Sequence record: PP449093.1
Direction: 5' to 3' (one strand)
DNA length: 64,000 bases
Source of the DNA: Escherichia coli phage phiS
The position numbers and the translations under genes are program-made. The notes under the pieces are model-generated. The model was not told where the DNA came from and did no database searches. It saw nothing but the letters and a program-made list of their open reading frames with translations. Of the stretch, positions 18,896 through 25,056 are shown piece by piece. Within the stretch, counting starts at the first letter, position 1; each line of letters starts with the position of its first letter.

Positions 18896-19147
18896 ATGGC
18901 TAACATCGAAACCGCAAAGAAAATCGCTAAAGACCTGAACGTTAAAGGCTTCCGTAAACTGAAATTACAGCGTGTACGCTACACCATCGGCAAACAGTGC
19001 TCTTTCATGAGCGAAGAAATTGCTAACAGCCTGATTGATAACCTGATTGCGGCTGGCTGGGAAGTTGCGGATCTGAAAACTTGCCGCGAACTGGCTAACA
19101 AAGGTCTTTTAGATTCTGTTACTATCAAACCAATGGGGGCAGCGTGA
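18896..19147 (+). CDS. Hypothetical protein (83 aa)
   Basis: GGAG RBS, PeSL upstream. Confidence 0.45.
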   Translation: MANIETAKKIAKDLNVKGFRKLKLQRVRYTIGKQCSFMSEEIANSLIDNLIAAGWEVADLKTCRELANKGLLDSVTIKPMGAA

Positions 19148-19680
19148 ACAATATAGACTGGAAGAAATACTTTAATTATGATCCTGATACTGGTATTCTT
19201 ACATGGAAGGAGAGAACAGATATACACCCATCAAGAATAAAACAATGGAATGCTGCATGGGCTGGAAAGGAGGTCGGGTCACTAGGAAGTGGTGGACGTT
19301 ATCTTGAATCGTCAATAAAAATTGACGGTAAAATTATTAACTACAAAGTTCATCGAGTATGTTATATTATCCACAATGGACCTATACCAGAAGGATATGA
19401 AGTAGACCATATTAATCACATTAAGACAGATAATAGAGCGGTGAATTTTGAACTTAAGACACATCAAGACAACATGAGGAATCAAACAAAATCTAAAAAG
19501 AATACAAGCGGACACAGTGGAATACATAAAAACAAATACAATAAATGGGTAGTTAGAATTGGCAGCGGTCGTCGTGGTGATAGAAAATATCTAGGATGCT
19601 TCGATACATTAGAAGAAGCTATAGAGGTTAGAACCAAAGCAGAAAGAGAGCATGGCTATCATGAAAACCACGGAAAGTAA
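19144..19680 (+). CDS. HNH endonuclease with C-terminal AP2-like DNA-binding domain; GTG start
   Basis: HNH core YEVDHINHIKTDNRAVNFELKTHQDNMRNQ; AP2-like GIHKNKYNKWVVRIGSGRRGDRKYLGCFDTLEEAIEVR. Confidence 0.7.
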   Translation: MNNIDWKKYFNYDPDTGILTWKERTDIHPSRIKQWNAAWAGKEVGSLGSGGRYLESSIKIDGKIINYKVHRVCYIIHNGPIPEGYEVDHINHIKTDNRAVNFELKTHQDNMRNQTKSKKNTSGHSGIHKNKYNKWVVRIGSGRRGDRKYLGCFDTLEEAIEVRTKAEREHGYHENHGK

Positions 19681-20386: not shown

Positions 20387-20715
20387 TGAGATTGTTTAAG
20401 TATTCGCTAACGTCAAATTACGATAAACAAGGTCATTGCATCCGTTGCCCTGATTGTCATAACCATAACATCGAAAGCAAGATCACCGATCATATTGATG
20501 GACTTTGGTCGCCAGCAAGTGAAATAGAATACTATTGCGCTGATTGTGGAATTGTAGTAGCATATTGGGCATACGGATCATATGATCCATACTTCCAGAT
20601 GGGAGAGCGTTCAATCCCTGCGCTTATCTGGAGAATTAAGAACAATATCCGCCATTCATGGGATGAGTTATTAAAAGATATTGATTTACGTGATGATCCA
20701 TTCAGGAGACTATAA
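20386..20715 (+). CDS. Zinc-ribbon protein (two CxxC pairs)
   Basis: CIRCPDC ... CADCG. Confidence 0.45.
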   Translation: MRLFKYSLTSNYDKQGHCIRCPDCHNHNIESKITDHIDGLWSPASEIEYYCADCGIVVAYWAYGSYDPYFQMGERSIPALIWRIKNNIRHSWDELLKDIDLRDDPFRRL

Positions 20716-20716
20716 C

Positions 20717-21235
20717 ATGAACAGATTAACCCCTAAACGCCGTTACTATACCAATACTAAAAACTTTGTCATCTCTGTTTATGAGGCGTGGTTAGAAGAT
20801 GGCTATATCAACATGAACCCAGATTATCAGCGTCCTTTGGTATGGGACACCGAAAACAAACGTATGTTTATCGAAAACCTGATTAATGATTTTCCGGTTG
20901 GTGCTATCGCAATGGCTAAGATTGATGATGGCTCTCGATATGAGATCGAAATCGTGGACGGTAAACAGCGTTTAAACGCAATATTCTCCTTCATGAAGGA
21001 TGAGTTTAGCATTGCTGGTAATGATGATTCTATGCTGTATTACAGTGATTTTACGCCAGCAGAAAAGCGACGTTTCCGAAATCTCGGACTACCCGCGATA
21101 ATGATGGAAGAGAGCACACGAGAAGACCGATTAGAGTATTTCTACAAAACAAACTTTTTCGGTGTCCCTCAATCGGAAGAACATCGCCAGCATGTGATTT
21201 CCCTATTGCAAGATGAGCAATTAAAAAATAACTAA
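20717..21235 (+). CDS. Standalone DUF262 (ParB/Srx-like NTPase domain) protein
   Basis: PDYQRPLVW ... IVDGKQRLNAI matches the DUF262 signature (DxQR ... DGQQR); AGGAGA RBS before ATG 20717. Confidence 0.55.
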   Translation: MNRLTPKRRYYTNTKNFVISVYEAWLEDGYINMNPDYQRPLVWDTENKRMFIENLINDFPVGAIAMAKIDDGSRYEIEIVDGKQRLNAIFSFMKDEFSIAGNDDSMLYYSDFTPAEKRRFRNLGLPAIMMEESTREDRLEYFYKTNFFGVPQSEEHRQHVISLLQDEQLKNN

Positions 21236-21242
21236 AAAGTTG

Positions 21243-21272
21243 TTGACAGGGGGATCGGTGATCCCCTATAAT
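21243..21272 (+). promoter_or_regulatory. PeSL-like early promoter: TTGACA - 18 bp - TATAAT
   Basis: Inverted repeat GGGGGATC ggt GATCCCC. Confidence 0.55.
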
Positions 21273-21308
21273 GCACACATACCGAAACGAACTACTAAGG
21301 AGTATCAA

Positions 21309-21526: not shown

Positions 21527-21546
21527 GGGGCGTTAAGCCCCGTTTT
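21527..21546 (+). terminator. Terminator-like hairpin
   Basis: GGGGC gttaa GCCCC followed by GTTTT. Confidence 0.45.
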
Positions 21547-21587
21547 CATAAATATAGGTTTATAGGTTATCAACTAGAGGATATAAA

Positions 21588-23639
21588 ATGTTTAACTTAG
21601 AAATCGACGATCTAATGATTGAATCTTTCGAGAAATGGCTGTTGACGGAAGAGGAAGAAAACTTTGGTAGTATTGCCCCGGTACAGTGCTTAAAGCCTAA
21701 GCAGAATCCTAAACAGCTTTTTGCAGTACAGACACGCGATAAAGATGTGATTGTCCGTCTTTGTAACTTCACCAACAAAACACCTAAAATCATTCGTATG
21801 GGTGACAAGACAGCACATGTTGTACTGTGCGAAATGAACAAAAGCGGTCGTATTGTACAGCTTAAAAATGGTCTAGGCGATAACCCGATTGCAGTTATGG
21901 CAAGTGCTTTTGATGTGGTTATGGAAACAGCCCGTAAAGCGCAATTAGACGCTGTTATGTTCCGTTTTAACGTATCCCGCATGAAAGGTAAGACCGAACT
22001 GGTTAAGCGCGTTATAGAGCGTTTGGTGCGTCGTACACCGAAGTTTGAAGTATTCCAGCAGGAAGTAATGACCAGCAAAAAGATCGCTTTAGTTGTTGTC
22101 AAGCGTCGCGGTATGGCGATTGATAAGATTAAAGGGATTAAACTTGATGATTCCTTGTTCACTAAAGTAGAAAGTGATTTAGGTGATCGCTGGGTATCTA
22201 AGGCTACTGGTGAATCTCTGACTAAAGATGAGGCGTATGCGGCTAGTCTTGTGTCAGAAGAAGAACGAAACGCGGAAGCGGAACAACGCGTAGCGGCTAA
22301 ATCTCGTTTGACTAAAGAAGAAATGCTGAAAACTCAAGCGACCTATAACAGCGACTATGTGAATCATCCAGAAAAAATTAATCTTAAACCGGAAGAAGAT
22401 ATCACCGAAGCCGAACCTAAGAAACAGTTTAATACTCTGATTGATCGTCAAGCCTTAGAACGTTCAACCGCTCGTTCTCTGAATGAATGGACAAGTGATA
22501 TTATCACTCGCTATGGTTTCATGCGTACTATTTTTGAAAGCGAAGCCGATGCAAAATACGCAGTAAGCGAACTGGTAAAAGTTCAGGATCAATATGATCC
22601 GTTGTCTGCGGAAGTTATCGCAGCATCAATCAAACGCTTAAAAGAAATCATGAGCGAGGAAGTATTCGAAAACAAGATCACCGCCCTGGCAATGGATCGA
22701 GTAGACCAGTCTATGCCAGCAGATGTAAAAGCTGAAATGCTGCGTAGTCATATCACCCAGATTAAAACCGATGCCCTACGTAATGTTGCTTCCGGTATGT
22801 TTGAAGCAATTGCTAGCAACATGGGTGAAATGATGGCAGATATTGATCTTGATCTGCCGGGCGCGGAAGGTTTTGTATTGAGCGAATATGCCGATGCAGC
22901 ATACATCAATATGAACAACTTCCTAACCGACCGTAAGCTGGAAGAGTTTGAAGGCATCGCAGATCCAGAAGAATTGGTCAAGATGTGCGATGCACTGGAT
23001 AATGCCTTCTCTAACTATGGTGTTAAACTTGATCCGGGTACTATTCTGTATCGTGGTATGGACTTCCGGTCGCAAATGTGGGAAACTGCACGTAAGCAAA
23101 AAGCGTTTTACTTTAAAAACTATGTGAGCACTTCCCTTGCACCTAACATTTTTGGTGGCTGGAATGCAAACGTGGCTAGTGCCATTGCTGGTGTTGATTC
23201 TATGGCTGGCTCTCGCGGTGAAGGTGGCGCTAATGTTGCTTTCTCCATTGCTGGCGCGGAAAACATCCCTGTATTGCCAGTAGGTAACAAAGCATTTGCT
23301 TACAAAGAATGCGAGATTTTACTTCCTCGCGGTGTTGTGTTATCCTTTGATACGGTAACTCGTGCTACGGCATCGACGGATTCACAAGAAACATATTACA
23401 TTGAGGCACATATTATGAACAAAAGTGAACTGGCAGCATTACAAGAATCTGGCGAAATGATCGCGGACGGTGATGCATTCATCCGTGAAGGTGTTGTTAA
23501 ACCTGCTTCTGACCTGTCTTTCTCCAGCTTCATTAGCGAAGCTAAAACCGAACGTAAGAAAGCAGATAAGGCAACTCTACGTCAGCTTATCGCTGATCTG
23601 GTATCTGTAGACGCAATGCCAGATAAATTTAAAATGTAA
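21588..23639 (+). CDS. alt: ADP-ribosyltransferase Alt (head-packaged)
   Basis: 683 aa (T4 Alt is about 682); R-S-E catalytic triad motifs LYRG, VSTSLAP, ECEILLPRG; CATAAATA late-promoter-like box at 21547-21554. Confidence 0.85.
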   Translation: MFNLEIDDLMIESFEKWLLTEEEENFGSIAPVQCLKPKQNPKQLFAVQTRDKDVIVRLCNFTNKTPKIIRMGDKTAHVVLCEMNKSGRIVQLKNGLGDNPIAVMASAFDVVMETARKAQLDAVMFRFNVSRMKGKTELVKRVIERLVRRTPKFEVFQQEVMTSKKIALVVVKRRGMAIDKIKGIKLDDSLFTKVESDLGDRWVSKATGESLTKDEAYAASLVSEEERNAEAEQRVAAKSRLTKEEMLKTQATYNSDYVNHPEKINLKPEEDITEAEPKKQFNTLIDRQALERSTARSLNEWTSDIITRYGFMRTIFESEADAKYAVSELVKVQDQYDPLSAEVIAASIKRLKEIMSEEVFENKITALAMDRVDQSMPADVKAEMLRSHITQIKTDALRNVASGMFEAIASNMGEMMADIDLDLPGAEGFVLSEYADAAYINMNNFLTDRKLEEFEGIADPEELVKMCDALDNAFSNYGVKLDPGTILYRGMDFRSQMWETARKQKAFYFKNYVSTSLAPNIFGGWNANVASAIAGVDSMAGSRGEGGANVAFSIAGAENIPVLPVGNKAFAYKECEILLPRGVVLSFDTVTRATASTDSQETYYIEAHIMNKSELAALQESGEMIADGDAFIREGVVKPASDLSFSSFISEAKTERKKADKATLRQLIADLVSVDAMPDKFKM

Positions 23640-23656
23640 TTTTTAAGAAATAATGG

Positions 23657-23685
23657 TTGACTCAAACGGGGACTAGTTTTATACT
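23657..23685 (+). promoter_or_regulatory. PeSL-like promoter: TTGACT - 17 bp - TATACT, doubling as terminator hairpin after alt
   Basis: Hairpin ACGGGGACTAGT ... ACTAGCCCCGT plus TTTT; hexamers at consensus spacing. Confidence 0.5.
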
Positions 23686-23717
23686 AGCCCCGTTTTCTGT
23701 TATATGGGAGGTTTAAA

Positions 23718-24542
23718 ATGTTCAAGAAATTACAGGATTTTCGTCTTTCGGAAGAAGCACGCGAATCAATGATGGAACGTATGGATAATTACATCGAAAC
23801 ATATGGCATCGAGGGGATTAATGGTTACATGATCACTGAGATGATCAGCGATCAGATTAACTTTGATGATTATGTGAAGGTTATCCGCTTCCTTGAGCGT
23901 GAGACACAAGATTATGGATTTGTCAAGAAAATCATTAATGTGATGTATGAAGTACACTCCGAAGACTTTGGAGATAATGTATTCAAACATTACAAACATA
24001 ACAATATAACCCCAGCAGAATATAATGCAATCTGTGATTATGTGTCTGAACAATACGAATGGGTAAATGGTGCTCTCTTAGGGGAAGAAGACATGACCGA
24101 TGAGATATCAGAGATTGTTGATTTGATGGATTGTGTCATGGATAAAACCGAAAAGTTAAACGGTACTCTTTATCGCGGTCAACATCTTGACATTCAGACA
24201 ATAGAGCGTATTATTGAAGATAAGGAATTTACCTTTAAAAACTTTGTGTCGACCAGCATGACACCAATCATCTTTGGAGGCTGGCTTTCAAACAGCACTA
24301 GCCTTTATTGTGAGAATCGATATGAATCAATGACCGGAAAGATGCAACATTCTTGTAATGTATCGTGGGTAATTGACGTAAAAGATCATAAAGGTTTTGT
24401 CGTTGGGTCAATTGCATGGAACCCTTGCGAATGTGAAGTAATTTTACCGCGCGGGACTTGCGTCAAGGTAAACGACGTAGTAGAATCTTTCGGCGATGAG
24501 AATCGTAGACAATTTACAATTTTCGGTGAGGTGACTAAATGA
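23718..24542 (+). CDS. Second ADP-ribosyltransferase (Alt/Mod-like, 274 aa)
   Basis: LYRGQHL, FVSTSMTPIIFGGW, ECEVILPRG parallel the Alt catalytic motifs. Confidence 0.7.
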   Translation: MFKKLQDFRLSEEARESMMERMDNYIETYGIEGINGYMITEMISDQINFDDYVKVIRFLERETQDYGFVKKIINVMYEVHSEDFGDNVFKHYKHNNITPAEYNAICDYVSEQYEWVNGALLGEEDMTDEISEIVDLMDCVMDKTEKLNGTLYRGQHLDIQTIERIIEDKEFTFKNFVSTSMTPIIFGGWLSNSTSLYCENRYESMTGKMQHSCNVSWVIDVKDHKGFVVGSIAWNPCECEVILPRGTCVKVNDVVESFGDENRRQFTIFGEVTK

Positions 24543-25024
24543 AAATGATTAAACTGATTGGTCTTGCGGCTGCATTCATGCTTACTGGTTGTGCCAACAT
24601 GGAAGCTATGATGAATGCTAAATCAGATCCGGTTTTCTTGCTTCGTGAATGTAAAGCAGCATATGCAAGTGATGGTCAGATCGAATCATGCTTTATTTCT
24701 AAAATGGAACGTCGAGACGTAGATCGAGTTAAAGTTGGTTTAGCACCACAAACTCAGATGTTCAAGGATGCAATCAAAGAAGCGCGGGAAGAGAAAGAAC
24801 AAGAAGAAAAGAAGCGTCAAGAAGAATTGCGCAAGCAGAAAGAAGAGTCTAAACAACTTGATAAGATGAAAGCACGGGATCGCTGTATCATCATGTCTGA
24901 CATGCAGATAGAGCAAGAAGCAAGAAAGGCAGCATTAAACGGTGATTATGACCGTTATGAAGAACTTAACAGCGCAGAATTTCAAACTAAGGCACTAAAA
25001 TATTGCAATGATTTAGCAAAATAA
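24539..25024 (+). CDS. Lipoprotein with coiled-coil region
   Basis: Signal peptide plus lipobox MKMIKLIGLAAAFMLTGC; K/E-rich central segment. Confidence 0.6.
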   Translation: MKMIKLIGLAAAFMLTGCANMEAMMNAKSDPVFLLRECKAAYASDGQIESCFISKMERRDVDRVKVGLAPQTQMFKDAIKEAREEKEQEEKKRQEELRKQKEESKQLDKMKARDRCIIMSDMQIEQEARKAALNGDYDRYEELNSAEFQTKALKYCNDLAK

Positions 25025-25027
25025 AAA

Positions 25028-25050
25028 GGCGGGGGATAATCCCCGCCTTT
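25028..25050. terminator. Bidirectional terminator between convergent early (+) and late (-) units
   Basis: AAAAA GGCGGGGG ataat CCCCGCC TTT; run of A on one side and T on the other. Confidence 0.6.
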
Positions 25051-25056
25051 CGCTTA

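Follow-up and report, generated by a model that had tools for sequence, protein, structure and literature searches.

A full-length and a catalytic-only Alt-type ADP-ribosyltransferase separated by an early-promoter stem-loop in the RB49-like phage phiS

Phages of the T4 type reprogram their host by timed ADP-ribosylation, and the closest described enzymes are the three ADP-ribosyltransferases (ARTs) of T4 itself, i.e., Alt, ModA and ModB (PMC3014915, PMC9958956, PMC10468400). T4 Alt (P12726) is a packaged NAD+:arginine ART, which is present in ~40 copies per head and loses a small N-terminal peptide to the prohead protease gp21 (PMC9958956); ModA and ModB are small, early and unpackaged R-S-ExE enzymes served by sigma-70-type promoters, and ModB also uses NAD-capped RNA. 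Here we describe a tandem pair of Alt-type ARTs, 683 and 274 amino acids (aa) long, together with the early-promoter stem-loop (PeSL) element that separates their genes, in a stretch of 64,000 nucleotides (nt) from Escherichia coli phage phiS (record PP449093.1; hereafter, the window). Judged by its sequence, the window is a genome segment of an RB49-like Krischvirus (Straboviridae), a T4-type coliphage, and its segment 21400-25100 is 98.3-98.6% identical across the whole length to 58 phage records, including RB49, GEC-3S (98.4-98.6% for these two) and ELT4.

A second alt-related gene right after alt and before gene 54 is found in JS98 (alta/altb), T6, T4 (alt.-1/alt.-2) and 44RR (ORF187c/188c) (PMC1524935), and likewise in Krischvirus. 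In JS98 and T6 (alt plus a 685-aa alt-like open reading frame, ORF), each copy is full length, and the two directly adjoin, with no promoter-bearing spacer between them, and are apparently co-transcribed; the T4 genes alt.-1 and alt.-2 are N-terminal fragments only, whereas Krischvirus keeps only the catalytic part and keeps it behind a PeSL. The pair, which a preceding sequence-only reading of this DNA had treated as new, is already annotated and published. Indeed, the RB49 and GEC-3S records share an identical gene order (alt, "ADP-ribosyltransferase", a hypothetical protein, then the convergent genes 54, 48 and 29), RefSeq describes RB49p183 as "similar to C-terminal part of T4 Alt protein", and Nolan et al. 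(2006; PMC1524935) listed RB49ORF183c, 44RRORF188c and T4 alt.-1/alt.-2 as paralogous alt duplications.

The PeSLs described in RB49 and phi1 (Arbiol et al., 2010; Comeau et al., 2014) consist of an A/T stretch, -35 and -10 boxes, a G-run/C-run hairpin (lying over the -10 box in one of the described subclasses), a Shine-Dalgarno (SD) sequence and an ATG, and the same elements are present here. Promoter as well as terminator activity has been demonstrated for other RB49/phi1 PeSLs (206/205 and 211/210; PMC2839356). Unlike the RB49/phi1 elements, which flank ORFans and are shuffled, the PeSL of this locus separates two paralogs of a known family and is conserved across lineages.

Two enzymes and the signals of their genes

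The longer gene, alt, occupies positions 21588-23639 (plus strand) and encodes a full-length Alt ortholog of 683 aa, as established from the ORF list, colinearity with T4 Alt, PHROG and Pfam. This protein aligns colinearly with T4 Alt from aa 31 to aa 681 (27% identity, E 4e-62), matches the Alt family phrog_802 end to end (3e-180) and carries PF03496 (ADPrib_exo_Tox) on aa 425-610 (37.9 bits); its 90% identity cluster (P0009) carries both PF26846 (Tevenvirinae_ADPRT) and PF03496. The layout comprises an N-terminal domain (aa ~30-235), a helical linker, the ART domain and a conserved C-terminal tail; for aa 1-340 there is a weak hint of a GNAT-like character. Being colinear along the full length, with PF26846 and the C-terminal tail present, the 683-aa protein is by these sequence criteria Alt proper, of the T4 gpAlt type. 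It further resembles T4 Alt in its genome position next to gene 54, in the hairpin and late-promoter layout upstream, in the R/STS/ExE signature and in an N-terminal (L/I)-x-E motif: L19-T-E21, aligned with T4 I4-T-E6, is a putative gp21-type propeptide site, which would give a propeptide of 21 aa in Krischvirus Alt vs. 6 aa in T4 Alt. An ITE/LNE motif is present in 58 of 60 Alts, and (L/I)-x-E lies inside the first 11 residues in nearly all Alts.

The shorter gene, at 23718-24542 (plus strand; ORF list, PF03496, phrog_15144), encodes the 274-aa ortholog of RB49p183, a short Alt-type ART, and is preceded by the SD sequence GGGAGG at 23706-23711. Both ORFs thus exist exactly as the sequence-only reading had delineated them. 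The short ART matches PF03496 with 59.2 bits (4.6e-16) and phrog_15144 with 5e-197, and it covers the Alt family phrog_802 only at profile positions 331-602. As that reading had recognized, the long N-terminal region of Alt is missing (~340 residues, including PF26846); also absent, a point it had not mentioned, is the conserved ~75-aa C-terminal tail (DGD...ETG...P-x-KF) of full-length Alts. In both these respects, and in having an early promoter of its own, the short ART is unlike T4 Alt, with whose catalytic part it shares 31% identity over 181 aa (E 1e-23); identity to the neighbouring Alt is 37% over the catalytic core (E 2e-16).

The catalytic signature attributed to both proteins (R, STS and E-x-E) is retained in each. 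In Alt, the motifs are LYRG (aa 487-490, nt 23046-23057), VSTS (aa 513-516, nt 23124-23135) and ECE (aa 574-576, nt 23307-23315), which place the catalytic residues at R489, S514-T515-S516, E574 and E576; in the short ART, they are LYRG (aa 151-154, nt 24168-24179), VSTS (aa 177-180, nt 24246-24257) and ECE (aa 238-240, nt 24429-24437), with R153, S178-T179-S180 and E238-C-E240 as catalytic residues. Positions R153, S178, T179, S180, E238 and E240 (short-ART numbering) are invariant in a 72-sequence alignment of the Alt family, and no loss of catalytic residues was seen on careful alignment. The retention of the signature is far beyond chance, and both PF03496 scores exceed the Pfam gathering cut-off (23.4 bits). 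The short-ART motifs also align with LYRS/STS/EME of T4 Alt and, by HMMER, with YRG/STS/EAE of the solved Tre1 and EAE of SpvB. Sequence searches of the PDB yielded marginal matches only for the short ART (Tre1, SpvB, Vis) and no matches for Alt. As judged from family and motifs, both proteins are R-S-E ARTs of the C3/VIP2-like type (PF03496).

An AlphaFold2 model of the short ART, built from the 72-sequence alignment (pLDDT 91.7, pTM 0.88), was compared with the PDB using Foldseek and retrieved Vis, C3bot2/C3 exoenzymes, CDTa, iota Ia and Certhrax (E 5e-11 to 1e-8, probability 1.0). There were 125 PDB matches with E<=0.001, and the best 50 listed are all ARTs of the C3-like/binary-toxin type. 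The single-domain Vis and C3-like toxins (PDB 4xzk, 1r45) match best (E 5e-11 to 1e-10, target TM ~0.64); they share with the short ART one ART domain of ~200 aa with an N-terminal helical lobe, and the E-x-E form is that of arginine-specific Vis. They differ from the short ART in sequence (16-20% identity), and the latter has an extra N-terminal helical extension of ~65 aa that it has in common with the Alt linker, and lacks a secretion signal. The model thus confidently predicts a complete single-domain C3/Vis-like ART fold with an additional N-terminal helical extension.

Upstream of alt, a terminator scan detected a terminator-like G+C-rich hairpin, GGGGCgttaaGCCCC, followed by a T-run, at 21527-21541 (plus strand). 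Its position is matched in RB49, GEC-3S (where a terminator is annotated) and the distant relative L005, and it is predicted to shield alt from early transcription arriving from upstream. It is followed at 21548-21554 (plus strand), 33 nt before the alt ATG, by ATAAATA, a motif resembling T4-type late promoters and recognized by its conservation: (C/A)ATAAATA is kept in the window, RB49, GEC-3S and L005 despite divergent surrounding intergenic DNA, and ATAAATA occurs on the plus strand 6 times vs. ~13.7 expected. We take it as the predicted late promoter of alt. The layout is like that of T4 alt, where TATAAATA comes after a hairpin and lies 28 nt ahead of the ATG. Hairpin and late-promoter-like motif together fit a late alt gene insulated from upstream early transcription, a timing that we infer from these signals. 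As a separate observation, a block in the 5' leader of alt (window 21555-21587; L005 3890-3929), AGGTTATCAAC, located after the late-promoter-like motif and ahead of the SD, is conserved in otherwise diverged lineages.

Between the two genes, the spacer at 23640-23717 holds, in order, an A/T-rich stretch, -35 box, 17 nt, -10 box, GGGAGG and ATG. The early promoter of the PeSL (23656-23685, plus strand) reads G-TTGACT (-35, 23657-23662), 17 nt, TATACT (-10, 23680-23685), and the stem-loop (AAACGGGG-a-CTAGT / ACTAGCCCCGTTT, then TTCTGTT; 23664-23695, plus strand) overlaps the -10 box. The element fits the published definition of PeSLs, including the subclass with a stem-loop overlapping the -10 box (PMC2839356), its -35 box is the early form GTTGAC of RB49 (PMC1524935), and GEC-3S has a promoter annotated at this position. 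A generic promoter scan is uninformative alone (14 sites vs. 10.9 expected), and we have therefore required the specific form GTTGAC-N18-TATA, which occurs in the window 7 times vs. 0.18 expected (6 of the 7 on the plus strand, at 3-24 kb), along with cross-lineage conservation. In five lineages with saturated synonymous sites, the -35 box, the 17-nt spacing and the -10 box are unchanged, and two stem pairs change on both arms (CTAG/CTAG to TCAG/CTGA and ACAG/CTGT); the unchanged promoter and the compensatory stem changes point to selection on both promoter and hairpin. The PeSL-type promoter proposed at 23657 was thus borne out at the sequence level, with the overlapping hairpin. As RNA, the hairpin has a folding energy of -20.9 kcal/mol (z -2.84). 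Transcription starting ~7 nt past the -10 box would begin in the 3' arm, so that the whole hairpin is formed only in transcripts coming from alt, for which it is a predicted terminator or attenuator.

Conservation, descent and relation to Mod

Orthologs of the short ART are few (83%, 63%, 48%, 44% and 45% identity), and every contig bearing one has alt, a short spacer, the short ART, an ORF of 159-170 aa and gene 54 on the other strand. Likewise, the order alt, PeSL, short ART, lipoprotein-like ORF and (gp54) is common to five diverged lineages, down to 44% identity. Comparison with the 83% ortholog gave a nonsynonymous-to-synonymous substitution ratio (dN/dS) of 0.097 at dS ~1.2, with synonymous sites saturated at greater distances; by this measure, the short ART is under purifying selection.

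A recent duplication of the adjacent alt gene was considered as the origin of the short ART and rejected, since the short protein scores no higher against the adjacent Alt than against T4 Alt (66 and 87 bits, respectively) and branches as a clade of its own. A neighbour-joining tree of the catalytic region, built without bootstrap and indicative only, places the short ARTs in a separate deep clade, apart from Krischvirus Alts, primary Alts and second-copy (altb-type) Alts. In the phage collection, 1,217 records were matched, many of which contain two distinct matches to the short ART.

The suggestion that the short enzyme is Mod-like holds only in part. As family membership it does not stand: by BLASTP, the similarity to T4 ModA and ModB is not significant (E 0.41 and 1.2), and the short ART has no match to the Mod family phrog_832 or to a local hidden Markov model (HMM) of Mod. 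Furthermore, unlike modA and modB, its gene adjoins alt and gene 54, not srd. A separate protein of the Mod family is encoded elsewhere in RB49, namely RB49p014 ("modB", 167 aa), located directly downstream of srd, i.e., at the position of T4 modA/modB, and 33% identical to ModB (E 8e-11), with matches to phrog_832 (1e-20) and the local Mod HMM (3e-78). When all ORFs of a composite Krischvirus genome, made up of RB49 1-100 kb, the window and RB49 135-164 kb, were searched with HMMs, exactly two Alt-type ARTs and one Mod-type ART came up. What stands is an analogy of function, that of a small, early-expressed ART, so that the likeness to ModA and ModB is one of proposed role. Krischvirus appears to reach the three ARTs of T4 by another mix (Alt, a short Alt-type enzyme and Mod vs. 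Alt, ModA and ModB).

Deployment of the two enzymes and competing explanations

Overall, we consider it probable, with moderate confidence, that an early-made, non-packaged short ART stands beside a packaged late Alt, and that Krischvirus would deploy these two R-S-E ARTs of the Alt/VIP2 branch at different times. Alt, carrying the Alt-specific N-terminal domain and the gp21-type (L/I)-x-E site, would be transcribed from the late promoter behind the terminator and, by homology with T4 Alt, would be packaged into the head, enter the cell along with the injected DNA and at once ADP-ribosylate arginines of the host RNA polymerase alpha subunit and of other proteins. The hairpin of the PeSL would terminate the alt transcript, and the sigma-70 promoter inside the PeSL would drive an early bicistronic mRNA for the 274-aa enzyme and the lipoprotein. 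The 274-aa enzyme most likely acts on host proteins as a freshly made cytoplasmic arginine mono-ADP-ribosyltransferase, and a Mod-like role would be filled by an Alt-derived catalytic domain beside the single true Mod-family enzyme. It is plausible that the target of the short ART differs from those of Alt and Mod.

Several points weigh against this scheme. E-x-E is the form associated with arginine-specific ARTs (PMC8120803), and in the short ART it predicts this specificity without proving it. Termination at the PeSL hairpin may be partial, with late read-through from the alt promoter. An early promoter is compatible with packaging, as suggested by analogy with T4 ipI, ipII and ipIII, which sit behind early promoters with stem-loops. 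An (L/I)-x-E motif ending at aa 8-13 is present in 5 of 6 members of the short-ART family vs. 12% of the long ORFs of the phage, and it could be a prohead-protease site. Finally, the literature offered nothing relevant on RB49 or Krischvirus with regard to ART experiments, expression, virion proteomes, enzymology or paralog studies.

Some of these points bear on the alternative that survives best, although we regard it as unlikely: the short ART would also be packaged and injected like an internal protein (IP), its first ~12 residues, MFKKLQDFRLSE|E, serving as a capsid-targeting propeptide cut by gp21. The frequency of the near-N-terminal motif (L10-S-E12 in the short ART) is in line with this explanation, as is the motif's occurrence, in alignment, as a common feature of Alts. 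In the AlphaFold2 model, the site falls between a short N-terminal helix and the helix 12-29, and the N terminus loosely resembles the targeting sequence MKTYQEFIAE|A of T4 IPII/IPIII, a QDF-like resemblance which, however, is confined to the closest orthologs. The T4 genes of the packaged products, ipI, ipII and ipIII, each lie behind a GTTTAC-type early promoter with long palindromes around the -10 box, in a PeSL-like manner. On the other hand, the short ART lacks PF26846 and the C-terminal tail, which are conserved in essentially all full-length Alts, no late-promoter motif is found upstream of its gene, and a hairpin with a T-run lies between it and alt. We have also looked for a Krischvirus capsid-targeting consensus by comparing the N termini of all ORFs with those of the short ART and the T4 IP sequence, and no family emerged; the RB49 ORF in the ipI position has no capsid-targeting-like motif. 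If the short ART were packaged, the virion would deliver two different ARTs, and the large N-terminal domain of Alt would not be what targets Alt to the head.

Less probable still, and improbable in our estimation, is that the short ART and the translationally coupled lipoprotein form a module apart from the takeover of transcription, e.g., an anti-defence effector that would ADP-ribosylate a toxin or defence protein of the host, and a superinfection-exclusion lipoprotein. The reading frames overlap (ATGA), four to five lineages keep the pair together, with the lipobox conserved, and T4 Alt has been reported to modify MazF (PMC8120803); yet unrelated early genes are as a rule co-transcribed in T4-type phages, and the short ART has no signal peptide, so that the two products would act in different compartments. 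The weak N-terminal match of the lipoprotein to the Cor superinfection-exclusion family (E 0.0025) spans the signal-peptide region only. The notion that the short ORF is a decaying, non-enzymatic remnant of an alt duplication, to which the T4 remnants alt.-1/alt.-2 at the matching position and the grouping of RB49ORF183c with them by Nolan et al. (PMC1524935) would lend some credence, is effectively refuted by selection and conservation, as its dN/dS of 0.097 excludes decay, its catalytic residues are invariant in orthologs down to 41-48% identity, its ART fold is complete and confidently modelled, and its gene is served by a conserved promoter and SD of its own.

The scheme of an early, non-packaged short ART beside a packaged late Alt thus remains the one we favour. 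A further-reaching conjecture, which we advance only tentatively and hold to be doubtful, is that the 274-aa protein founds a deep catalytic-only Alt-type lineage that became fixed together with its PeSL and lipoprotein, and that it modifies targets different from those of Alt and Mod or else serves as a second injected ART, entering the capsid via its short (L/I)-x-E propeptide without the N-terminal domain of Alt. The short ART is of value as a defined, conserved enzyme that lends itself naturally to testing which regions of Alt determine packaging and which determine the choice of targets.

Lipoprotein-like gene and other features nearby

The ORF that follows the short ART (24539-25024, plus strand; ORF list) encodes a lipoprotein-like protein of 161 aa, and its start overlaps the short-ART stop codon (ATGA). 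The protein has a signal peptide with the lipobox LTGC and belongs to phrog_16112, a family of unknown function; an L[TN]GC lipobox is conserved in the ORFs of 159-170 aa found downstream of the short ART in four lineages. The 161-aa protein shares 45% identity with its L005 homolog; T4 alt.-3, the gene in the matching position, is unrelated to it. A terminator scan placed a bidirectional terminator hairpin with an 11-bp stem at 25024-25051, where the early operon and late gene 54 converge and where GEC-3S has terminators annotated on both strands.

Farther upstream, the window departs from RB49 and GEC-3S at two sites. An ORF for an HNH endonuclease (19144-19680, 178 aa; PF13392, 3e-17) is found in place of the 81-aa RB49p189.1 of RB49 and GEC-3S, directly upstream of a putative DNA methyltransferase, and is likely a mobile-endonuclease insertion or replacement. 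At ~21268-21291, the ORFan RB49p186 (59 aa) and its PeSL are absent relative to RB49 and GEC-3S; two BLAST segments overlap there by 24 nt on the PeSL core, the pattern expected of a PeSL-mediated deletion. A perfect TTGACA-18-TATAAT promoter sequence lies at 21243-21272. In addition, an ORF of the phage early region (20681-21235) encodes a GmrSD_N (DUF262) domain (PF03235, 4.7e-20) in a length of only 172-184 aa, and by this domain match it comprises the N-terminal domain of a type IV restriction-like protein but lacks the nuclease half.

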